From NCBI GenBank assembly GCA_025929315.1, contig JAICMI010000002.1, forward strand, positions 209 to 64,208: a stretch of 64,000 nucleotides of DNA, read 5' to 3'. Both the position numbers and the translations under genes were made by a program. Position 1 is the stretch's first letter. Each line of letters opens with the position of its first letter. The DNA is from Frankiaceae bacterium (GTDB lineage: Bacteria > Actinomycetota > Actinomycetes > JAFAQI01). Positions 18,246 through 27,426 of this stretch are shown here, in pieces. The notes under the pieces are model-generated. The model saw nothing but the letters and a program-made list of their open reading frames with translations. It searched no databases and was not told the origin of the DNA.

Positions 18246-18626
18246 CTAGCGGCCCTCGTCCTGCCGTCGCTGCCACCGCTCCTCGAGCCGGTTCTTGAGC
18301 GACTCTTTCGGGGCGCGTGCTTTCGGTTGCTTGGGCGCCGGCTGGCGGGAGCGAGTCGACAGGGCGAGCCAGGCTCCGAGGAGCATGAGGACGAAGCCGG
18401 CAACACCGAGGGCGACACCGACGATGATGCTGTTGCCCTGGACGATGACGCCGGCGACGAGCAGGCCGAGGCCGACCACGACCAACAGGACGGCACGGAT
18501 GGCGCGAACGCGCTGGAGGCTGCGGAGATCCTTGACGCGCCAGTTGCGCGCGAACTTCGGGTCCTCGGCATAGAGAGCCTGCTCGATCTGCTCGAGCAGT
18601 CGCTGCTCGTGCTCGGAGAGCGGCAC
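18246..18626 (-). CDS. DUF3040 family small membrane protein (Rv2169c-like)
   Basis: VPLSEHEQRLLEQIEQALYAEDPKFA signature plus two TM helices. GTG at 18624-18626 preceded by GGAGGAG. Confidence 0.7.
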   Translation of the reverse strand: MPLSEHEQRLLEQIEQALYAEDPKFARNWRVKDLRSLQRVRAIRAVLLVVVGLGLLVAGVIVQGNSIIVGVALGVAGFVLMLLGAWLALSTRSRQPAPKQPKARAPKESLKNRLEERWQRRQDEGR

Positions 18627-18703: not shown

Positions 18704-19963
18704 CTAGCCATCGGGGGTCGGGTCGTCCGGTTGCTCGCGCCGGTTGGGGTCGACCAAAGCGGCCGGAACGACCGCACCGGCACCGAACCGGGCCGCGGCC
18801 CGATCGGCGGCTCGCTCCGCTGCCCGCCACTCCTCACCGCCGCCGGCGAGCGCTAGCTGCCGAGGCGTCGACTCGGCCGGGGTGAGCCCCTCGACCCGGA
18901 CGCCGACGAGCCGGATCCGGGCGCGCTGCAGGCCGAGCGCGTCGTACAGGCCGCCGGCGGTCTCGTAGACGATCCGGGCGACGTCGGTGGCTTCATGGAT
19001 GGTCCTGGCGCGGGTGATCGTCGTGAAGTCGGCGAACCGGACCTTGATCGAGATCGTCCGGCCGACGAGTCCGGCGGAGCGCAGCCGGGCGGCCGTGCGT
19101 TCGGAGAGCCGGAGCAGCTCGCGGCGCACGACGGCGGGATCATCGACGTCACGGGCAAAGGTCTCTTCCGCGCCGATGCTCTTGTCCGGCTCGTGCGGGA
19201 CGACGTTGCGCTCGTCGCGTCCCCAGGCGAGCGCGGACAGATGCGCCCCCGCGGCCGGTCCGAGCGCCCGTTGCAGGGTCGCGACCGGGGTGTGCGCGAT
19301 GTCGCTGATGGTGCGCAACCCGAGCCTGGTCAGCGCTTCCTCGGTCTTGTCGCCGACCCCCCACAGCACGCCGACCGGCAGCGGGTGCAGGAACGCGATC
19401 ACGTCGTCACGCGGTACGACGATCAAGCCGTCGGGCTTGGCGCGGGCGGACGCGAGCTTGGCCACGAACTTGGTGGGGGCAACACCTACCGAGCACGTGA
19501 TGCCCTGCTCGTCCTCGACCCGTGCGCGGATGAGCTCGCCGATCAAGCGCGGCGAGCCGAGCCGGCGCTGCGCGCCGGCCACGTCGAGGAACGCCTCGTC
19601 GAGGCTCAAGGGCTCGACGAGCGGCGTGACCGAGCGGAACACCTCCATCACACCGCGGGACGCCTCGTCGTAGACGCCGTGGGTCGGCGGGATGACCGTG
19701 GCCTGCGGGCACAGCCGGCGGGCTCGCATCATCGGCATGGCGCTGTGCACGCCGAACGCACGTGCCTCGTAGGTCGCGGACAGCACGACCGAACGGGAGC
19801 CGAGACCGCCGACGATGACCGGGGTGCCGATGAGCTCGGGGCGGCTGCGCAGCTCAACCGACGCATAGAACGCGTCCATGTCGACGTGGAGCACGGTGGC
19901 GCCGGTGTCGTCGCCGGTGGCGTTGTCCATCGGTCCGAGCCGCTGCAGCTGCCGACGGGTCAT
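18704..19963 (-). CDS. dinB: DNA polymerase IV (DinB, Y-family)
   Basis: VLHVDMDAFYASVE and SLDEAFLDV catalytic motifs are intact (so not ImuB). 419 aa. Confidence 0.9.
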   Translation of the reverse strand: MTRRQLQRLGPMDNATGDDTGATVLHVDMDAFYASVELRSRPELIGTPVIVGGLGSRSVVLSATYEARAFGVHSAMPMMRARRLCPQATVIPPTHGVYDEASRGVMEVFRSVTPLVEPLSLDEAFLDVAGAQRRLGSPRLIGELIRARVEDEQGITCSVGVAPTKFVAKLASARAKPDGLIVVPRDDVIAFLHPLPVGVLWGVGDKTEEALTRLGLRTISDIAHTPVATLQRALGPAAGAHLSALAWGRDERNVVPHEPDKSIGAEETFARDVDDPAVVRRELLRLSERTAARLRSAGLVGRTISIKVRFADFTTITRARTIHEATDVARIVYETAGGLYDALGLQRARIRLVGVRVEGLTPAESTPRQLALAGGGEEWRAAERAADRAAARFGAGAVVPAALVDPNRREQPDDPTPDG

Positions 19964-19981: not shown

Positions 19982-20728
19982 TCAGTCGCGGCGGGCGAGC
20001 AGGTGCAGCTGGGTGGCGATCGCCAGGTAGTCAGCCCGCTCGGCCGCGTCGCGCTCGAGTGCCAGCAGGTCGTCGGCTGCCTGCGGATCGCCGTCGAGCA
20101 GCGCCGGCGGCACGGTGTCGGCGAAGACGCGCACACCGTGCACCGTCTGCACGCGCAACCCGGCCGCAGCCAGCAACGGCTGGAGCTCGTCGAGCGTGAA
20201 CCGCCGTTGCAGCGGGTCGCCCGGACCGGTGGTGCCGTCTGTGCCGGTGAGCAGCCGGCGCGCCTCGGTGAGCCGACCGGCGGCGACGCGGCCGAGCACG
20301 GCGGCGCTGCGGTTGGCCGCGAGCACGCTGGTGATCCCACTGCTGCGCAGCGACTGGGTGATCGCCGCAAGCGCCTCGCCGGGGTCGTCGACGACCTCGA
20401 GGACGCTGTGGCAGAGCACCAGGTCGAACGAGCCGGCCGGCACCAGTGCGGGCAGCCCGGCCGCATCGCCCTGCATCGCTCGGATGCGCTCGCTGGTCCC
20501 GGTCTCGGCCGCGCGCCGCTCGAGCGCGGCGAGCGAGTCGGGGCTGGGGTCGACCACGGTGACGTCGTGACCGAGCTGCGCGAGCGGTACGGCGAAACCG
20601 CCACTGCCACCGCCGGCGTCGAGCACGCGCACGGCTCCGCCGCCGGCGAGGTCGTCGAGCGCACGACGCAGGTAGTCCCAGACGACCGCGGTGCGCACGC
20701 CGGTGCGGGTGCGTGGTGCGGTCGCCAT
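19982..20728 (-). CDS. Class I SAM-dependent methyltransferase
   Basis: VLDAGGGSGGFAVPLAQLGHDVTVVD motif I. Directly upstream of dinB on the same strand (19-nt spacer). Confidence 0.75.
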   Translation of the reverse strand: MATAPRTRTGVRTAVVWDYLRRALDDLAGGGAVRVLDAGGGSGGFAVPLAQLGHDVTVVDPSPDSLAALERRAAETGTSERIRAMQGDAAGLPALVPAGSFDLVLCHSVLEVVDDPGEALAAITQSLRSSGITSVLAANRSAAVLGRVAAGRLTEARRLLTGTDGTTGPGDPLQRRFTLDELQPLLAAAGLRVQTVHGVRVFADTVPPALLDGDPQAADDLLALERDAAERADYLAIATQLHLLARRD

Positions 20729-20750: not shown

Positions 20751-21779
20751 CTAGTGCAGTCGGTGCACCGTGACCGTGAGCTGTCCGTCGGACATCCAGC
20801 CGGCCGTGTCGTGGATGGCGTAGGCCAGCGGCGCGCGCTTCTTGAACGTCACCGTCTTGCTGTAGGTGTGACGCCCCGTGGCGCAGCCGCTCTTGGTCGA
20901 CGCCTTCCAGGTGTGCATGTTGTTGACCCACAGGTCGAGAAGCCCGGTCTTGCCGGTGTCCTCGAACGCTGCCCGCTGGGTCCAGTGCTTGCCGTCGATG
21001 GTGCTGCACTCGGCGTCGGCCCGGTGGTGGCGTTGTCCGTCGGAGGAGTAGGTGCCGGTCACGGTGAACCGGTAGCTGCCGCCCTTGACCAGGCGGTAGG
21101 CCGGAGTCGGCGCGTAGTGCGGCGACACCTTGGTGGTCACGGTCTGGCCGAGCGTGAGTGTGCGCAGTGGCGGCGGCATCGGTGCGCTGACCTTGCCGGT
21201 CCAGAACGACGTCTTCTTCAGCGCGCCGGACCAGTCGAGCGAGATGTGCATGTGGTCGACGTGGCACGCCGTCGGGCCGGAGCAGTTGTCGTAGGGCTCC
21301 CAGCGCTGGCTGTAAGAGCCCCAGATGCGGTGGTTCCAGATGACATACATGACGCCGAGGCGGCGCACCATCGCGTCGGAGTCGCCGGATGCGTCGGAGG
21401 CGAACAGCCAGTCGAGGAAGGCTTTGCCCTGCGCGCGTGTCTTGGCGTTGCGGTGGTCGACGCCCCAGTCGATCGCCCGGCCGTCGTAGTGCTCGCTCGT
21501 GTCCGAGCCGCACGGCCGGGTGAGCGACACGATCGACGTGCCGCCGTAGGTCGCGGTCAGCAGGTGCGCGAGCGCCAGCGTGCCGGGCTTGGCCACCGGG
21601 TCGCAGAACGTCTGCGGCTGGTAGGGCGCGAGCACCTCGATGTCGCTGGGCAGAGCGACAGAAGCGTGCGGAACGATTGATCCGGTGGCGTCGGCTGCGC
21701 CCGGCAGGATCGGCACGGCAATGCCGGCGATCACCGCCGCGACGGCCAGTCGGCGTCGCAAAGACATGGGGGACCTCAA
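20751..21779 (-). CDS. Secreted hypothetical protein (signal peptide)
   Basis: N-terminal signal peptide MRSPMSLRRRLAVAAVIAGIAVPILPGAADA. No family is recognisable from sequence alone. Confidence 0.5.
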   Translation of the reverse strand: MRSPMSLRRRLAVAAVIAGIAVPILPGAADATGSIVPHASVALPSDIEVLAPYQPQTFCDPVAKPGTLALAHLLTATYGGTSIVSLTRPCGSDTSEHYDGRAIDWGVDHRNAKTRAQGKAFLDWLFASDASGDSDAMVRRLGVMYVIWNHRIWGSYSQRWEPYDNCSGPTACHVDHMHISLDWSGALKKTSFWTGKVSAPMPPPLRTLTLGQTVTTKVSPHYAPTPAYRLVKGGSYRFTVTGTYSSDGQRHHRADAECSTIDGKHWTQRAAFEDTGKTGLLDLWVNNMHTWKASTKSGCATGRHTYSKTVTFKKRAPLAYAIHDTAGWMSDGQLTVTVHRLH

Positions 21780-21880: not shown

Positions 21881-24800
21881 CTAACCACCCGACGAACCCG
21901 GGCTCGAGTGCCAGAGCTTGCGGGGTGGTCCGCCGGAGCCGGCCGGGCGGATGTCGGCGTAAGGGGACTGGGCGAACCCGCTGGCATAGATCCGCGGCTT
22001 GGTCATCACTGGTCGGGTGGAGCGGCTCTCTGCGGCACCGTGGACAGCCGCTTCGCTGACCGCGACCGGCCGGTGCATCTCGGCCTCGACCGCCGCCATC
22101 CCGCCGCGCTCCCACGCCTCGCGCAGCGCCGACAGCTCCCACGCGCCGTTGGCGTTGAGGGAGATGCCACGAGGGCCGGTACGACGCACCGTCCCGCGAA
22201 TCACCAGCAGCCAGGAGTGGAAGACGGTCGCGGCATAGCCGACCTGGGCATCTTCGAACAGGGTTGCGTCGACCGGCCCGGTCGCGTCGTCCAGCGTCAC
22301 GAACACGACCCGGCGACCGGAGCGGATCGGCGGCGTCTGGGTCGCGACCTTGACCCCGGCGACGAGCACCTCTTCGCGGCTGCGGCAGCGCATGAGCCCG
22401 TTGGCCCGGGTGATGCCGACCGCCGCGAAGAACGGCTCGTAGCACGCAAGCACGTGTCGGCTGGCGTCGAGCCCGAGAACTTCGAGCTCGGCGCGGGTCT
22501 GCTCGGCGACCGTCAGCTCCGGCAACCCGCTGACGGTCGTCTCGTTGGGCGCATCGCCCAGATCGAGTGCGAGCTGCACATCAACCGGCTGCACGTCCTT
22601 GGCCGCTTGCGACTGTCTCTTCGCGAGCTCGCGCACGGTGAGCGCCTGCTCGACGCGTTCCTGCTTGCGCCGCTGTGTCGTACCGGTGCCGCGTGATGCG
22701 GCACGGGTCCACCTGTGCAGATCGGCAACTTGTAAGAGGAGATCTCGTCTGGTGACCTGACCACGGCGTTTGACCGGCAGCGTCAACCCGATGCCGTAGA
22801 TGGAGTCGAAACCCCCGGCCAGCACGAGCCGTTCGACGATCGGGCGCGAGACGTTGGCGCGATGCCAGAAGTCGCTGAGTGATCCATAAGGCCGGCCGGC
22901 GACGATGCGCGCGATCTCCTGGTCGTTGATGCCTTTGACGTCAGCGAGTGACAAGCGGATGCCGTAGCGCTGACCGGCCGTCTGCCAGCCGGGTTCGGGC
23001 TGCTCGCCGAGAATGGCCGGCGGTGGCTCGTCGTACTGGGCAAGTCGTTCGACCGCGTAGGTGTCGGTCGAGACGTTGACGTCGAGTGGCAGCACGGCGA
23101 TGCCGAACTGACGCGCGTCGTCGAGGATCAAGCGCTTGGGATACATCCCCGGGTCGTGTGTCAGCACCCCGGCGAGGAATGCCGCGGTGTGATGCGCTTT
23201 CAACCACGCCGACTGATAGGTCGGCAAGGCGAACGCAGCGGCGTGCGCCTTGCAGAAACCGAACGACGCGAACGCCTTCAGCACCGCCCAGGCACGTTCG
23301 ACGGTAGCGAGGTCGTAGCCCTTGCGCAGTGCGGTCGGCACGAACCACGCCTGCACTTCCGCCTGCCCGTCGGGATCACCCAACGCGCGACGCGCCTCGT
23401 CGGCTTCGGCCAGTGAGCACTTGGTGAGGGTTGCGATGATCTCGAGCACCTGCTCGTGAAAGACGACGACGCCACATGTCTGCTCGAGCGCATCGTGCAG
23501 GTCGGGATGCAGGTAACGCTCGGGTTTCCAGCCCTGCCGCGCCTCGAGGAACGGCGTGACCATGTCGCTCTTGACCGGGCCAGGACGGAACAGCGAGATG
23601 TCAGTGATGATGTCGGCAAACGTCTCGGGGGCGAACTTGCCGACCAGCTCGCGTTGGCCGGGTGACTCGATCTGGAACATGCCGAGTGTGCGCGTCGACT
23701 GGATGAGCGCGAACGTCTCCGGGTCGTCGCGCGGGATGCTGTCGATGTCGACGTCGACGGTGTCGACGCGTCGTACCTCTTCTATGGCGTGCGCGATCGC
23801 GGACTGCATGCGGATGCCGAGGACGTCGAGCTTGAGCAGGCCGAGTGCCTCGACGTCGTCCTTGTCGAACTGGCTCATCGGGAAGCCGAGCCAGCTCGCC
23901 TCGACGGGCGTGCGGTCGAGCAAGGTGAGATCGCTGAGCAACACGCCGCACGGATGCAGCGCGACATGCCGCGGCAGACCGTCGAGTCGTTCGGCGAGCG
24001 AGAACAGCAGATCGAGCTGGGCCCTGCCGTCTTTTCCTGGCTTGCCGAGAGTGCTGGCGCGCAGCTCGGGCAGGTCGTGCAGCGCGGCTTTGATCTGGCT
24101 GGCGCGAATGTGCGGGAACGCCTTGGCGACTGCGTCGATCTCGTCGGGCGGTAGACCGAGCGCAGCGCCGGTGTCACGGATCGCGTGGCGCGCGCGGTAG
24201 GTGTCCATCATCGACACACATGCACACCGCTCGCCGCCGTAGCGGTCGAGGATGCGTTCGTAGACCTCGGTGCGACGCGCGGACTCGACGTCGAGGTCGA
24301 CGTCGGGCAGCGCCTTGCGCAACGGCGAGAGGAACCGCTCCATGAGCAGCCGGTGCTCGAGCGGGTCGACGTCGGAGACACCGAGCAGGTAGTTGACGAG
24401 GCTGCCGGCACCAGATCCGCGCGCCGCACACCGCACACCCATGTCCTTCACGAGCGCTACGACGTCGGCGATCGTGAGGAAGTAGGTCGGGTAGCCGAGC
24501 TGCGCGATGACGTCGAGCTCGTCGTCGAGCCGTTGCTGCACCTGCGCCGTCAACGCCATGCTGCGGCGGCCGAGACCTGCCTCGCACCGCTGCCGCAGCA
24601 CGACATCTGCGTTGCCACCGGCGTCAGTGCGCAGCTCCGGGAAGTGCACGGTGCCGATGCCGAGGTCGTCGCGCGGATCGAGCACGCATCGGTCGGCCAA
24701 CCGCCGGGTCGAGGCGAGCAGGTCGCGCGCGGCCCGCTCCCCGAGCCCGGCTGCGTGCGCGACCTCGGCGGCGACGTCGTCCATCTCCTTGCCGCTCTTG

Positions 24801-25582
24801 AGATAGGCCTCGGCGTTGACCCGGTCGAGGTGCCGTGCGTCGAGAGCGACAAGGCGGCGAGCGGCATCGAGCACGTCGAGCGTCGGGCCGTCGCTGCGGT
24901 CGGCGCCCCGCGACGCATTGGAGAGCACGACCGGCAGGTCGTGCTCTCGTGCCCACGCGAGCATCCGTCCGGCGCGGGCGGCATCACCCGGGCCGCGATG
25001 GTCGACGATCTCGACGACGACGTCATGCCACTCTGCGCCGGCATCGGTGAGCATCCGCCGCCACTGCTGGAGCTCGGCCTTCGCCAGGTCTGGTCGGCGG
25101 CGGCCAAGTGCACGACCCATCGCCGAGTCCGGACCGAGCATGACGACCAGCCCATCGACGTGCGCCGCGACGAGATCGAGAGTGGCGATCGGTTCGCCGC
25201 GCTCACCGGCGAGATGGGTGGCGCTGACCAACCGGCACACGCTCGCCCACCCGCGCTTGTCCTTCGCCAGGACAGTGACCCGCGGGAGACGATGGTCGAC
25301 AAAAGCCCCTCCCCGCGCCGGCGTCTTCGACTTCTGTGTCTTCTGGCGCGCGGAGCACGACGGTGCAACGCCCACGGCAAGGTCAGTGCCGAGGATCGGA
25401 CGCACGCCGAGGCGCATGCAGGCGGTGACGAACTTGACCACGCCATAGACACCATCGCGATCGGTCAGCGCGAGTGTGTCCATGCCGTGGTCGGCTGCAC
25501 GCTGAACGAGATCGGCCGGATGGGAAGCGCCGTGCCGCAGCGAGTAGCCGGACGCAACGTGCAGATGTACGAACGGATCCAT
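21881..25582 (-). CDS. dnaE2: Error-prone DNA polymerase III alpha subunit DnaE2 (ImuC)
   Basis: PHP-domain N-terminus MDPFVHLHVASGYSLRHGASHP, polymerase core, and no beta-/tau-binding tail. 1233 aa. Confidence 0.9.
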   Translation of the reverse strand: MDPFVHLHVASGYSLRHGASHPADLVQRAADHGMDTLALTDRDGVYGVVKFVTACMRLGVRPILGTDLAVGVAPSCSARQKTQKSKTPARGGAFVDHRLPRVTVLAKDKRGWASVCRLVSATHLAGERGEPIATLDLVAAHVDGLVVMLGPDSAMGRALGRRRPDLAKAELQQWRRMLTDAGAEWHDVVVEIVDHRGPGDAARAGRMLAWAREHDLPVVLSNASRGADRSDGPTLDVLDAARRLVALDARHLDRVNAEAYLKSGKEMDDVAAEVAHAAGLGERAARDLLASTRRLADRCVLDPRDDLGIGTVHFPELRTDAGGNADVVLRQRCEAGLGRRSMALTAQVQQRLDDELDVIAQLGYPTYFLTIADVVALVKDMGVRCAARGSGAGSLVNYLLGVSDVDPLEHRLLMERFLSPLRKALPDVDLDVESARRTEVYERILDRYGGERCACVSMMDTYRARHAIRDTGAALGLPPDEIDAVAKAFPHIRASQIKAALHDLPELRASTLGKPGKDGRAQLDLLFSLAERLDGLPRHVALHPCGVLLSDLTLLDRTPVEASWLGFPMSQFDKDDVEALGLLKLDVLGIRMQSAIAHAIEEVRRVDTVDVDIDSIPRDDPETFALIQSTRTLGMFQIESPGQRELVGKFAPETFADIITDISLFRPGPVKSDMVTPFLEARQGWKPERYLHPDLHDALEQTCGVVVFHEQVLEIIATLTKCSLAEADEARRALGDPDGQAEVQAWFVPTALRKGYDLATVERAWAVLKAFASFGFCKAHAAAFALPTYQSAWLKAHHTAAFLAGVLTHDPGMYPKRLILDDARQFGIAVLPLDVNVSTDTYAVERLAQYDEPPPAILGEQPEPGWQTAGQRYGIRLSLADVKGINDQEIARIVAGRPYGSLSDFWHRANVSRPIVERLVLAGGFDSIYGIGLTLPVKRRGQVTRRDLLLQVADLHRWTRAASRGTGTTQRRKQERVEQALTVRELAKRQSQAAKDVQPVDVQLALDLGDAPNETTVSGLPELTVAEQTRAELEVLGLDASRHVLACYEPFFAAVGITRANGLMRCRSREEVLVAGVKVATQTPPIRSGRRVVFVTLDDATGPVDATLFEDAQVGYAATVFHSWLLVIRGTVRRTGPRGISLNANGAWELSALREAWERGGMAAVEAEMHRPVAVSEAAVHGAAESRSTRPVMTKPRIYASGFAQSPYADIRPAGSGGPPRKLWHSSPGSSGG

Positions 25583-25593
25583 GTGCGCGGCGA

Positions 25594-26022
25594 CTAGCCA
25601 GCACGATCAAGTGTGTCGGGGAGCACTCCCAATGTCGTCTCGACAAGAGCGAGGAAGGTGTGTGCATCACGCACGAGGTCGTCGGCCTCCCGCGCGGTGA
25701 CGGCAGTGCGCAGGCCGGCAAGAGCAGCAGCTCGCTTTTCCGCGCCGGCGGCGAAGTAGCCCGCCCACTCCCCCAGCTCCGGCGCTACGGAGGTGAGGAG
25801 CACCCATGCACTGGTCGGTCGGCGTCGTACATCACTAGGACGGGCGCGAGCGGCGAGAACTGCAGCGGCCGCCCGCAAGGCCGCGAGATGAGCCGTTGCG
25901 TATCGCTCGGCAGCTCCCTCGAACCGCTCGGACTCGCGCAACGCCGCCCGCGAGCCGGCAAGCAGTCGCAGCGCGGTCGGCGCCGTCCGCCGGTCATAAG
26001 TCAGCACAGTCACCCTGGCCAC
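25594..26022 (-). CDS. SAV_6107-family HEPN domain protein
   Basis: Pattern ...AERYATAHLAALRAAAAVLAARARP...SAWVLLTSVAPELGEWAGYFAAG...READDLVRDAHTFLALVE matches the SAV_6107 HEPN family. GTG start lies 2 nt after the TGA of the upstream small gene (TGAGGGTG). Its stop is 12 nt before dnaE2. Confidence 0.65.
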   Translation of the reverse strand: MARVTVLTYDRRTAPTALRLLAGSRAALRESERFEGAAERYATAHLAALRAAAAVLAARARPSDVRRRPTSAWVLLTSVAPELGEWAGYFAAGAEKRAAALAGLRTAVTAREADDLVRDAHTFLALVETTLGVLPDTLDRAG

Positions 26023-26024
26023 CC

Positions 26025-26318
26025 TCAATCGAGGACCGCGGCGACGGTCCAGCGCCCGGTCGACCAGAAGTGCGCGAGCTCGAGAATCACCGGGCTGCGT
26101 CCGGGCGCGACCGCCTCGACCCGCCACAGCTCGCGTTCGTCGTCATGCACGCCGTCGGTGAGGTCACCTGCCTGCCACCAGGGACCGGTCTCCCACCAGT
26201 GCGCCAGCACCGATCGCACGACGTAACCGCGACGACGACGAACGAACGCGATCGGCTCGTTGTCGCGGTGGTCGACCTCGACGCGCTCGTCGTAGCGTCG
26301 AGCGAGAGACGCAGGCAT
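26025..26318 (-). CDS. Small conserved hypothetical protein (97 aa, Trp-rich WWETGPWW motif)
   Basis: ATG at 26316-26318 with GGGGAG 7 nt upstream. MPASLARRYDERVEVDHRDNEPIAFVRRRRGYVVRSVLAHWWETGPWWQ... Translationally coupled to the HEPN gene. Confidence 0.55.
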   Translation of the reverse strand: MPASLARRYDERVEVDHRDNEPIAFVRRRRGYVVRSVLAHWWETGPWWQAGDLTDGVHDDERELWRVEAVAPGRSPVILELAHFWSTGRWTVAAVLD

Positions 26319-26436
26319 GGCAGGCTCCCCTCTGCTCCCTGGTTCGGGCAGCCGGGGGAAGGCGGACTGCTGGTCGCACCCGGGCCGGGGCTTCGCGACG
26401 CTTCCCCACGTCGGGAAGCCCGGCTCCGGATGCATC

Positions 26437-26452
26437 TCGAACATACGTTCGA
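26437..26452. promoter_or_regulatory. LexA (SOS) box TCGAACATACGTTCGA
   Basis: Perfect match to the actinobacterial/Gram-positive SOS consensus TCGAAC-N4-GTTCGA. Lies about 120 nt upstream of the small-ORF/HEPN/dnaE2 operon start. Confidence 0.7.
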
Positions 26453-26535
26453 TAACCTGTCTCGTCAAGCCCTCTCGACCGGTTGTCGAACAGGGCCCAT
26501 CACACATCCGGCCACCGACAGTTTTCGGCTGATGC

Positions 26536-27426
26536 TCATGGGCGACGACGGAACAGCATGCCGATCGGCCGCAGCCACGGTGGCCACATCTCGAGCCAGT
26601 GCCATCGACGGATCGGCACCGCGTAGGCGGTCGCGTCGTCAGCATCCTCAGGGTCGACCTTGATGCCGCGTCGGTTGGCGAACTCCTTCAGGCCTTCGAG
26701 CAATTCGTCCGGACGCTCTTCCTCGGTCGTCTGAAGGGCAATGCGATCGCCCACAACTGACGCCCGCAGGACGACCCCTTCATCTGTGTAGAAGGTGAAC
26801 TCGTCGTCCTCGACGGAGTAGACGTGCATGCGCGCCGCGGCTTCGCGTGCCGACAGGAAGGCACGGACGTCGCCCGATCTACGGTCCAGCGCGAAAACGA
26901 AGGCGTCGAGGTCATCCTGTTCGAGCAGTTGCGCGTCACTCAGCTGGTCAAGCCGGTTGACCACCACGACGCCCACGACGCAGAGCCCGAGGTAAGCCAG
27001 CGCAAATCCTTCTGCCTCGACCAGTCGAGCTGTCTGGTGCCCCGGCGGCAAGCTGTGGATCAAGGTGAACCCGATGCCCTGCAACGCAGCGAGGACAGCA
27101 GTGAGCCCGAACATCCAGCCGATCGCCGGCCACCAGCCGGCGGCACGCGCCTCACCCGAACGCAAGGCCCAGTACGTCGCCGCAGCCGCAGCGATGAGCA
27201 AGAGGACTTCGGTCCCGTCGCCGGCCGTGCCGAACGTGGTGAGCACGTCATATGCCCGTGCACGGCCGGTTCCCAGGAAGGGCGCCTGGTTGTCGTGCCA
27301 CTCGACGAAGCCGGCGACCACGGCGGTCACGAGCCGCAGCGCCGCGGCCCCGGCCAGTGCCAGCGCCACCGGCCATGCGAGAACGGACTCGCGGCGTTCG
27401 ACCCCGTCGGTCATGCGGCGCACCAT
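26536..27426 (-). CDS. Hypothetical integral membrane protein
   Basis: About 6 predicted TM helices in the N-terminal half and an acidic soluble C-terminal domain. No recognisable family. Confidence 0.5.
   Translation of the reverse strand: MVRRMTDGVERRESVLAWPVALALAGAAALRLVTAVVAGFVEWHDNQAPFLGTGRARAYDVLTTFGTAGDGTEVLLLIAAAAATYWALRSGEARAAGWWPAIGWMFGLTAVLAALQGIGFTLIHSLPPGHQTARLVEAEGFALAYLGLCVVGVVVVNRLDQLSDAQLLEQDDLDAFVFALDRRSGDVRAFLSAREAAARMHVYSVEDDEFTFYTDEGVVLRASVVGDRIALQTTEEERPDELLEGLKEFANRRGIKVDPEDADDATAYAVPIRRWHWLEMWPPWLRPIGMLFRRRP

Follow-up and report, generated by a model that had tools for sequence, protein, structure and literature searches.

A LexA-box-associated actinobacterial DnaE2B operon with a predicted stand-alone ImuB C-terminal-domain protein and a conserved HEPN_SAV_6107 protein as candidate partner

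A perfect LexA operator (SOS box), TCGAACATACGTTCGA, is located at positions 26437 to 26452 of the 64-kb stretch of DNA that was analysed (the window). It is a palindrome of the form TCGAAC-N4-GTTCGA and is the only match to this actinobacterial-type box in the window with one mismatch or fewer (0.21 expected from shuffled sequences). The motif has been validated in Streptomyces by LexA ChIP-seq and surface plasmon resonance [PMC9380542]. A sigma-70-type promoter-like site on the minus strand (positions 26440 to 26468), made up of TTGACG, a 17-nt spacer and TATGTT, was the only one recovered by a consensus scan of positions 26250 to 26600, where 0.0 were expected, and its -10 hexamer TATGTT falls inside the LexA box. 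The box ends 118 nt before the ATG at position 26318 of the first of two small genes, in agreement with the initial annotation, which had reported a perfect box at this position about 120 nt upstream. Judged from the sequence, control of the operon by LexA is highly probable, and the operon would be expected to be induced by DNA damage. Nothing is listed under the names HEPN, DUF6504 or SAV_6107 in the supplements to the paper on the LexA regulon of S. venezuelae.

The first small gene, imuB-C (positions 26025 to 26318, minus strand), predicts a 97 aa protein with 7 Trp residues, and a GGGGAG sequence lies 6 nt 5′ of the ATG, bearing out the size and the good ribosome-binding site originally described. 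The protein matches Pfam DUF6504 (37.2 bits, cutoff 24.2), as had been anticipated, and BLASTP searches against the proteins listed as ImuB-C in NAR 2026 gave 63, 51 and 47 bits; the orthologous Nocardioides protein is named ImuB-C in the supplement of that paper. The predicted model is all-beta with no close fold in the PDB, and the same is described for ImuB-C in NAR 2026. Direct comparison with the C-terminus of full-length ImuB gave weak but in-register HMM and BLASTP matches of 6 to 21 bits. Alignment of DUF6504 with three ImuB C-termini using hhalign had a probability of 1.6% and covered only the last 13 residues, and Pfam DUF6504 had no match to an ImuB C-terminus at E ≤ 0.01. A profile search with the DUF6504 alignment against 1.84 billion representative proteins recovered 1216 relatives, and the best 150 of these were all small stand-alone proteins, with no direct bridge to ImuB among them. 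Nothing significant was found for either small protein in PDB sequence searches, and no NCBIfam model matches either of them. The name ImuB-C was coined by Aravind et al. 2013 [PMC3765255], and the assignment made here derives from similarity to the proteins so named in that study and in the 2019 and 2026 papers. By this similarity, the 97 aa protein is predicted to be the C-terminal domain of ImuB in the form of a separate protein, and the original proposal that the small genes stand in place of imuA′ and imuB has to be revised. Given that the locus belongs to the published DnaE2B-PolY-ImuB-C-RecA class described below, ImuB would have been split rather than replaced.

The TGA of imuB-C (positions 26027 to 26025) is followed by GG and then by the GTG, at position 26022, of the second small gene (positions 25594 to 26022, minus strand). 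The spacing of 2 nt is as first noted, but the product is 142 aa, 143 being the number of codons with the stop included. Gene callers have chosen the alternative starts, a TTG at 26028, which overlaps the imuB-C stop, and a GTG at 26013. The TAG ends at 25594 and the ATG of the dnaE gene is at 25582, leaving a gap of 11 nt; the tight coupling reported earlier therefore stands, with the gap 1 nt shorter than the 12 nt given. The predicted protein matches Pfam HEPN_SAV_6107 at 123.9 bits (cutoff 27.2), in accordance with its first identification, and the four-helix HEPN fold was confirmed. The nearest solved folds are AF0298 (2hsb), TT1696 (1ufb) and the HEPN domain of sacsin (3o10), the last of which reportedly binds nucleotides. 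The RNase motif, Rx4-6H, is absent from its canonical place at the N-terminus of the last core helix. This position is occupied by R111-EADDL-x-R118 (R111-x6-R118) with no conserved His, and His 121 varies among homologues. An invariant R40-x4-H45 is located in a helix other than the canonical one, and the further invariant residues are Y41, E82, E85, W86, K96, R97 and the stretch R111-D119. The SAV_6107 family was likewise listed as being without Rx4-6H by Anantharaman et al. 2013 [PMC3710099]. No fusions of ImuB-C to HEPN were found among the longer members of the family, which carry only low-complexity loop insertions or miscalled starts.

The third gene, dnaE2B (positions 21881 to 25582, minus strand), predicts an error-prone C-family polymerase of 1233 aa with the Pfam domains PHP, DNA_pol3_alpha, finger, HHH_6 and OB. 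In the PHP site, YSLRHG and TDRDG stand where D and H are otherwise conserved, and the polymerase aspartates are retained. Over the N-terminal 400 aa, identity is 53% to the DnaE2B of Nocardioides and 49% to that of Tessaracoccus, compared with 32% to a DnaE2A, and the polymerase is thus of the DnaE2B group rather than the ordinary DnaE2 that it was first taken to be. The NCBIfam error-prone model gave 662 bits (cutoff 939) and the DnaE1 model 658 bits, also below its cutoff. A premature stop codon interrupts dnaE2B in a near-identical MAG, and the gene is therefore dispensable.

Two further members of the cassette lie downstream on the same strand. The first (positions 19982 to 20728) predicts a 248 aa class-I SAM-dependent methyltransferase (Pfam Methyltransf_11, _25 and _23). 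The second, polY (positions 18704 to 19963), predicts a 419 aa DinB-type Y-family polymerase with IMS and IMS_C domains, which scores 398 bits on the NCBIfam DNA polymerase IV model PRK03858 (cutoff 367). Its catalytic motifs DMD and SLDE are kept, so that its initial description as a true DinB was correct. It is the sole Y-family gene in the window and has no DUF6504/ImuB-C domain. A clamp-type QLALA motif is also present in PolY, and its C-terminal tail is RecA-NT-like; the tail sequence WRAAERAADRAAARFGAGAV resembles the tails of published PolY partners, and WRAAERAADRAAARFGAGAVVPA, compared by resemblance to those in NAR 2026, is closely like them. A gene for a DUF3040 membrane protein (PF11239; positions 18246 to 18626, minus strand) marks the end of the cassette and is found downstream in most loci.

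The conservation of this arrangement was assessed in 80 loci, each from a different species. HEPN comes after ImuB-C in all 80. DnaE2B was found in 76 of the 79 loci whose sequence reaches far enough downstream, DinB in 76, and the methyltransferase gene separates dnaE2 from dinB in 76 of 80. A LexA box was found at the orthologous position in each of 78 loci, perfect in 73 and with one mismatch in 5. Linkage of the small genes to dnaE2 and to SOS boxes, initially seen in one genome, hence recurs across species. At most 25 nt separate the HEPN stop from the dnaE2B start in 57 of 76 loci, and in 26 the stop and start overlap. HEPN is the best conserved protein of the cassette, with a median best-HSP identity of 68%, followed by DinB (60%), DnaE2B (59%) and ImuB-C (41%), and it is kept in three loci where dnaE2B has been lost (L020, L056 and L089).

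A second sample, independent of gene context, consisted of 120 HEPN loci pulled from metagenomes by a motif pattern. Approximately 54 have the imuB-C/HEPN/dnaE2B arrangement, 8 are HEPN/imuA′/imuB with dnaE2A following in some, 5 are HEPN/MTase and 41 carry HEPN alone, with 4 others and 8 too short to class. About half of the sample therefore has no ImuB-C and about a third has HEPN alone, which means that the two small genes, first presented as a pair, are not an obligate one. The HEPN/imuA′/imuB type includes L184 and L179. L184 was checked directly, with ImuA′ at 165 bits on NF058630 and DnaE2, a genuine DnaE2A, at 1530 bits on NF004225 against 662 for the DnaE of the window. Using tblastn, no ImuA′ or ImuB was found to be encoded within the 64-kb window, as had been stated. 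Nor was ImuA′ found in the 80 species loci with two queries, the validated L184 protein and that of L162, whose gene is in the same position and whose sequence is similar. The methyltransferase gene also occurs in loci of the imuA′/imuB and HEPN-only types.

All four HEPN arrangements have flanking GNAT, YbaK and MTHFR genes in common, and the chromosomal site is between the Rv2175c/MTHFR/GNAT/YbaK genes and DUF3040/TgpA. SAV_6107 itself may lie near the dcw cluster and metF. The position of HEPN is fixed and syntenic across orders, and the site is a chromosomal one that is vertically inherited. Perfect LexA boxes precede 36 of 40 imuB-C/HEPN/dnaE2B loci, 3 of 4 HEPN/imuA′/imuB loci and 3 of 3 HEPN/MTase loci. 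A LexA-type box (2 mismatches or fewer, within 300 nt upstream) was present in all 34 HEPN-alone loci, compared with 2.2% of control windows. Among named organisms, those closest to the HEPN-alone loci belong to the Streptosporangiaceae, members of which have DnaE2B elsewhere in the genome. From this survey of four classes it follows that two different DnaE2 modules adjoin the same HEPN gene.

The operon very probably represents the four-subunit 'DnaE2B-PolY-ImuB-C-RecA' system published in NAR 2026. The two share a stand-alone ImuB-C, a DnaE2B, a PolY with intact catalytic residues and a RecA-NT-like tail, the phylum, and the absence of imuA and imuB (here within the 64-kb window), DnaE2B being normally found in genomes without these two genes (NAR 2026). 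In addition, the Nocardioides exemplar of that paper is orthologous to loci found here, and the downstream DinB is a component of the published class, not a bystander. Recognition of the locus as a clear member of the ImuA/ImuB-less DnaE2B systems is hence a confirmation and not a discovery. However, HEPN is in the cassette in every one of the 80 species loci and the methyltransferase also belongs to it, whereas the words 'HEPN' and 'methyltransferase' occur zero times in the main text of NAR 2026, and 'HEPN' zero times in its supplements. The 'good tetramer' models of DnaE2B-PolY-ImuB-C-RecA in that paper were made for orthologous Nocardioides, Janibacter, Kineococcus and Ornithinimicrobium cassettes, and these AlphaFold tetramers assemble with good scores with HEPN not included. 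In the Janibacter, Kineococcus and Ornithinimicrobium exemplars, the accession numbering leaves room for exactly one gene between ImuB-C and DnaE2B, and we infer that this gene (APH01278, ABS04680 and QFG68258) is HEPN_SAV_6107. In Tessaracoccus the accession numbers of ImuB-C, DnaE2B and PolY follow one another without a gap, so that an intervening HEPN gene is probably absent there.

The mycobacterial ImuA′-ImuB-DnaE2 mutasome (Warner et al. 2010, as cited in PMC6511836 and PMC12926913) resembles the present system in that an error-prone C-family polymerase is under SOS control and requires small accessory factors; the beta-barrel of ImuB-C is the proposed DnaE2-binding element. The window differs in having no ImuA′ and no inactive ImuB, ImuB-C being a separate 97 aa protein, in the catalytically intact Y-family partner, and in a polymerase of the DnaE2B clade, not DnaE2A. 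In some actinobacteria, including L184, L179 and others, a canonical imuA′/imuB/dnaE2 cassette is found at this same site, immediately 3′ of the HEPN gene. Stand-alone ImuB-C proteins are also known from lexA-imuB-C-polY operons such as that of Geobacter sulfurreducens (Aravind, Anand and Iyer 2013) [PMC3765255]. There too, a small all-beta ImuB-C with a conserved C-terminal Trp heads an operon that is SOS-regulated and includes an active Y-family polymerase, but DnaE2 and HEPN are not part of it and the sequences are only remotely similar to the actinobacterial DUF6504 branch. The second small protein belongs to the actinobacteria-restricted HEPN-M (SAV_6107) family, Pfam PF18726 [PMC3710099]. 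The 2013 HEPN survey gives no genomic neighbourhood for the family [PMC3710099], and no link of HEPN_SAV_6107 to DnaE2 or DNA repair was found in the literature searched, NAR 2026 included. Its association with SOS and translesion synthesis (TLS) genes is new.

The reading favoured here (probability roughly 0.6) is that of a LexA-repressed operon for a non-canonical 'split' mutasome, with HEPN_SAV_6107 as a candidate accessory or regulatory partner. On DNA damage, RecA would be activated and LexA would cleave itself and vacate the operator that covers the -10 hexamer. A single transcript would then give rise to ImuB-C, HEPN_SAV_6107, DnaE2B, the SAM methyltransferase and the active DinB-type PolY. 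By analogy with the mycobacterial ImuB C-terminus and the published AlphaFold tetramers, ImuB-C may bind the PHP domain of DnaE2B, while PolY would contact the beta-clamp and RecA, the latter acting in trans and replacing ImuA′. The assembled complex would carry out error-prone lesion bypass. HEPN_SAV_6107 is envisaged as a non-RNase HEPN-fold partner, rather than a nuclease toxin, that may bind a component shared by DnaE2/PolY systems. The earlier suggestion of a novel accessory module for TLS was close to the truth for the 97 aa protein, but the architecture is that of an already published class.

In mycobacteria and other actinobacteria, mutations that arise after DNA damage, among them those to drug resistance, are driven by DnaE2-dependent mutagenesis. 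What the locus adds is a small HEPN-fold protein, a candidate for a missing player, that is conserved above both polymerases and stays at one chromosomal site with a LexA-type box upstream while canonical and split DnaE2 modules swap beside it. That HEPN is a functional partner of the TLS machinery is considered to have not quite an even chance. If it does take part, the published four-subunit models are incomplete and there is a new, testable regulatory handle on SOS mutagenesis. The strongest form of this proposal, in which HEPN_SAV_6107 takes part in or regulates SOS mutagenesis across the actinobacteria, has so far been overlooked, serves both DnaE2 mutasomes and DinB and forms the constant core for exchanged polymerase modules, is speculative and on balance unlikely. 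In that form, HEPN might control whether the polymerases can reach RecA filaments or the clamp, and could do so by means of a rebuilt non-canonical site (R40/H45 with R111/R118).

Since HEPN persists on its own and where dnaE2B has been lost, it must be able to function with neither ImuB-C nor DnaE2 next to it. HEPN could instead be an SOS effector in its own right that takes no physical part in TLS, its coupling to dnaE2B being regulatory hitch-hiking, and this is a possible reading though one we would hold only tentatively. HEPN would be the ancestral resident whose LexA-controlled promoter was reused by arriving TLS modules, a scenario to which the same reserve applies. Its action might be that of a checkpoint factor, or of a regulator that binds nucleotides or nucleic acids. 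An independent effector would account for the 41 of 120 loci, such as those of Streptosporangiaceae, in which HEPN is alone behind a LexA-type box, for the three loci that retained it after loss of dnaE2B, and for the polymerase-free HEPN/MTase loci. The constancy of HEPN at a site where the modules differ (imuB-C with dnaE2B, or imuA′ and imuB with dnaE2A) also fits, as does the fact that the published complex models need no HEPN. However, two unrelated DnaE2 modules are found directly beside HEPN, often with overlapping stop and start, which exceeds what promoter sharing calls for, and, as members of the Streptosporangiaceae carry DnaE2B elsewhere in the genome, HEPN may act in trans on a polymerase there. 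Should HEPN have no part in TLS, it would still be an unreported core SOS gene of Actinobacteria and a case of the HEPN domain being used outside RNA cleavage.

The alternative first raised for the two small genes, a damage-triggered toxin/antitoxin-like pair, which would make HEPN an RNase toxin and the 97 aa protein its antidote, is very improbable. In its favour, the fold is indeed HEPN, RNase toxins are common among HEPN proteins [PMC3710099], the two short genes adjoin each other in tight coupling, and an invariant R40-x4-H45 exists, though off the canonical helix. Against this, and unlike RNase-type HEPN proteins, the family has R111-x6-R118 with no conserved His at the canonical position, in keeping with its listing by Anantharaman et al. 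2013 [PMC3710099]. No MNT nucleotidyltransferase or other antitoxin partner is nearby, the adjacent protein being a predicted polymerase-binding domain that about half of the sampled HEPN loci do without. HEPN_SAV_6107 had no match in 72,556 plasmids, 50,697 phage records or the PADLOC models, and its chromosomal position is fixed and syntenic across orders. Toxin-antitoxin and defence functions were both rejected, given the absence of the motif from the canonical helix and the missing plasmid, phage and PADLOC matches.

Least credible of all is a reading of the DnaE as a replicative or otherwise unremarkable paralogue of Pol III alpha, in an arrangement unrelated to any mutasome, since the near-equal scores on the error-prone and DnaE1 models, both under cutoff, and a length nearer that of DnaE1 are set against DnaE2-like substitutions at the PHP metal-binding positions, the higher identity to published DnaE2B, the premature stop codon in the near-identical MAG, and a location behind a LexA operator with ImuB-C and PolY in 76 species loci.

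One further gene on the minus strand, between dnaE2B and the methyltransferase gene (positions 20751 to 21767), predicts a 338 aa VldE-like secreted protein (PF26571) with a signal peptide visible in the translation. It is restricted to the closest relatives and is probably a lineage-specific insertion that is not part of the system.

The only SOS box in the 64-kb window, TCGAACGTATGTTCGA, is located on the minus strand at 26452-26437 and is perfect against the actinobacterial TCGAAC-N4-GTTCGA. No other match is found even with one mismatch allowed, and 0.21 are expected from shuffled sequences. The box lies within the -10 hexamer of a promoter-like site (TTGACG, 17-nt spacer, TATGTT), the only such site in that intergenic region, and is 118 nt upstream of the first downstream gene. 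That gene (26318-26025, with the ribosome-binding site GGGGAG) predicts a 97-aa protein belonging to Pfam DUF6504, and is followed 2 nt after its stop codon by a gene (26022-25594) for a 142-aa protein belonging to Pfam HEPN_SAV_6107 (124 bits), referred to here as HEPN. After a further 11 nt is dnaE (25582-21881), encoding 1233 aa with C-family polymerase domains. Genes for a secreted, VldE-like protein (21767-20751; 338 aa, PF26571, signal peptide), a SAM-dependent class-I methyltransferase (20728-19982; 248 aa), DinB (19963-18704; 419 aa) and a DUF3040 protein (18626-18246; 126 aa) follow, all on the minus strand. The window is near-identical to contigs of a Frankiales/Mycobacteriales-like MAG. 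The initial annotation had described the box and the two small genes packed against dnaE2, and these observations are confirmed, including the family assignment by profile search; only the length of HEPN (143 aa) and its distance from dnaE2 (12 nt) were each one too high. A 296-aa ORF just upstream of the box (26536-27426, minus strand) has no match in Pfam, NCBIfam or PADLOC. It is kept only in near relatives (L013, L015), and a domain-less 166-aa gene takes its position in more distant ones (L006).

ImuB-C, as described by Aravind et al. 2013 (PMC3765255), is a small, beta-rich domain that forms the C-terminus of ImuB and is also encoded on its own in SOS operons, some with DnaE2; ImuA-less variants carrying a stand-alone ImuB-C were reported by Timinskas and Venclovas 2019. 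A survey published in NAR in 2026 defined the DnaE2B polymerases, which occur in genomes without imuA/imuB, and an actinobacterial "DnaE2B-PolY-ImuB-C-RecA" system, PolY being an active DinB-type Y-family polymerase. Its supplement includes component sequences for Nocardioides euryhalodurans, Janibacter, Kineococcus, Ornithinimicrobium and Tessaracoccus. The 97-aa protein matches the ImuB-C proteins of this supplement with 63, 51, 47, 42 and 39 bits and is most likely a stand-alone ImuB C-terminal domain. The step from DUF6504 to the ImuB C-terminus is taken from the literature, as profile comparisons gave no clear link between the two. The polymerase has, judged from its sequence, the features of DnaE2B: it retains the catalytic aspartates, has substitutions at the PHP metal-binding positions, scores below the NCBIfam cutoff both as "error-prone" and as replicative DnaE, and in its N-terminal 400 residues shares 53% and 49% identity with published DnaE2B proteins and only 32% with a DnaE2A. 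DinB is catalytically intact, as had been noted initially. It has a clamp-type QLxL motif, its C-terminal tail resembles those of the published PolY partners, and it is a component of the system. Since stand-alone ImuB-C, DnaE2B and an intact DinB/PolY are common to both, the operon belongs to this recently described class. The proposal that the small genes stand in place of imuA'/imuB thus needs revision, as ImuB is split here, not replaced.

A scan with a DUF6504 alignment, using one genome per species, found 289 relatives, and the best 80 of the 289 loci, mainly from Nocardioides with some Frankiales/Mycobacteriales MAGs, were kept. HEPN_SAV_6107 is immediately downstream of ImuB-C in all 80, DnaE2B is next in 76 of the 79 with sufficient sequence, and the methyltransferase and DinB are each present in 76 of 80. 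Upstream, at a median distance of 99 nt, 73/78 loci have a perfect LexA box and the remaining 5 a box with a single mismatch. The arrangement is therefore deeply conserved, and the neighbourhood survey that the initial annotation had called for bears out the linkage. In 57/76 loci dnaE2B starts within 25 nt of the HEPN stop, the genes overlapping in 26. In 11 loci (L028, L029, L031, L038, L042, L057, L059, L061, L069, L073 and L079) an insertion of 0.25-1.4 kb separates the two genes, and in 9 of these dnaE2B is behind its own second perfect LexA box. The insert in L029 is a gene for a secreted, 398-aa endonuclease-I-like protein. No dnaE2B is present in three loci (L020, L056 and L089), which belong to N. 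lacusdianchii, N. furvisabuli JCM 13813 and an unclassified Actinomycetota MAG; the rest of the cassette, from the LexA box through imuB-C and HEPN to the methyltransferase and DinB, is retained. In L026, from a MAG assigned to N. furvisabuli, dnaE2B is still present. A near-identical MAG (L002, GCA_025927615.1) has 9 differences from the window in 20 kb. One of them, at window position 24538, is a premature stop at dnaE2B codon 349 (called as ORFs of 348 and 851 aa), which suggests that the polymerase is dispensable, or else is decaying in that population.

HEPN is the best conserved protein of the cassette, with a median best-HSP identity of 68% compared with 41% for ImuB-C, 59% for DnaE2B and 60% for DinB. 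Residues R40, Y41, H45, R59, W73, E82, E85, W86, K96, R97, R111, E112, D114, D115, R118, D119 and E128 are invariant. At the canonical RNase site, where the last core helix begins, the sequence is R111-x6-R118 with no conserved His, and a separate invariant motif, R40-x4-H45, is at the start of helix 2. The 2013 HEPN survey (PMC3710099) listed SAV_6107 as an actinobacterial family without Rx4-6H and gave no gene context. The DnaE2B-PolY-ImuB-C-RecA system as published differs from the window and the 80 species loci in that HEPN is not mentioned: the main text of the 2026 survey contains neither "HEPN" nor "methyltransferase", and the supplements do not contain "HEPN". In its Janibacter, Kineococcus and Ornithinimicrobium examples, the accession numbers of ImuB-C and DnaE2B leave room for exactly one gene between them, presumably HEPN; those of Tessaracoccus leave none. 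Literature searches for co-mention found no link between HEPN and dnaE2, and papers joining HEPN, LexA and Actinobacteria concerned unrelated subjects.

To sample HEPN irrespective of gene context, the invariant EWAxxFAAGAxKRAAA was back-translated to a DNA pattern and metagenome contigs were scanned, giving 120 loci; boxes were counted where enough upstream sequence was available. About 54 loci have imuB-C, HEPN and dnaE2B, with a perfect LexA-type box in 36/40. Eight (L184, L179, L094, L145, L154, L162, L197 and L201) carry the canonical imuA'-imuB module, with or without dnaE2A, directly downstream of HEPN (box perfect in 3/4). In L184 this was checked: ImuA' (NF058630, 165 bits), ImuB with an IMS domain and DnaE2 (NF004225, 1530 bits) precede a methyltransferase and DinB. 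In 41 loci HEPN is alone, convergent with bldD, followed by pyrR-pyrB-pyrC-carAB, and nCGAA[CT]-N4-GTTCGA is found in 34/34, with one or two mismatches within 300 nt upstream; such a match occurs in 2.2% of control windows. Five loci have HEPN, the methyltransferase and DUF3040 without a polymerase (3/3), four have other arrangements (4/4) and eight were too short to class. GNAT and YbaK flank the locus on one side in every class, and MTHFR and an Rv2175c-like gene are found farther out; the classes thus represent one orthologous locus at which HEPN and the SOS operator are constant and the polymerase modules differ. In the canonical loci, which have the same GNAT/YbaK flank, the split module looks to have been exchanged in place for the canonical DnaE2 module. 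The 2026 table, in which Nocardioidaceae variously have DnaE2A, DnaE2B or neither, fits such exchange. The lone HEPN of L174 has its nearest named relatives in Streptosporangiaceae and Trebonia, and Streptosporangiaceae encode DnaE2B elsewhere in the genome. Streptosporangiaceae-like loci (L211 7001-7483; the 41 metagenome loci, e.g. L174 and L188) have the box nCGAA[CT]-N4-GTTCGAata, and the adjacent bldD is a developmental regulator gene. A Nocardioides-like MAG has, next to the Rv2175c-like gene, a gene pair for a barnase-type ribonuclease and barstar (L006 2023-2864) that is absent from the window.

Published work on ImuA'-ImuB-DnaE2 and published AlphaFold models together suggest a course of events in which cleavage of LexA would derepress one transcript. 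ImuB-C would then dock on the PHP domain of DnaE2B, PolY would supply the clamp and RecA contacts, RecA would act in place of ImuA', and the assembled complex would be expected to carry out error-prone bypass. HEPN may be a non-catalytic accessory or regulatory partner of these polymerases, a reading favoured tentatively (probability roughly 0.45) because two unrelated DnaE2 modules abut HEPN, translationally coupled to it, and because HEPN is extremely conserved. HEPN could instead be an independent SOS effector whose promoter is exploited by the translesion synthesis modules; this is possible, if somewhat doubtful, and is favoured by the one third of sampled loci in which HEPN is alone, by its persistence after loss of dnaE2B, and by published complex models that do without it. 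The toxin/antitoxin-like pair suggested initially is very unlikely, as HEPN lacks the canonical RNase motif and an MNT partner, has no match in plasmids, phages or PADLOC, and occupies a fixed syntenic position. The earlier interpretation is thus partly supported. What is new is that HEPN_SAV_6107, together with the methyltransferase, accompanies the split and the canonical DnaE2 systems alike and is conserved and LexA-controlled. HEPN, with a function that we infer, is a concrete candidate for a factor in actinobacterial SOS mutagenesis and can be tested as such.

Within the cassette the methyltransferase is no less constant than HEPN, and is found between dnaE2 and dinB or, in polymerase-free loci, directly after HEPN. 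Its PADLOC match to mad2 (60 bits) is probably due to the fold that methyltransferases have in common. The VldE-like gene (20751-21767) is an insertion that separates dnaE2B from the methyltransferase gene. Only the closest relatives, L011 and L015, share it, and a similar gene is found after HEPN in L191.
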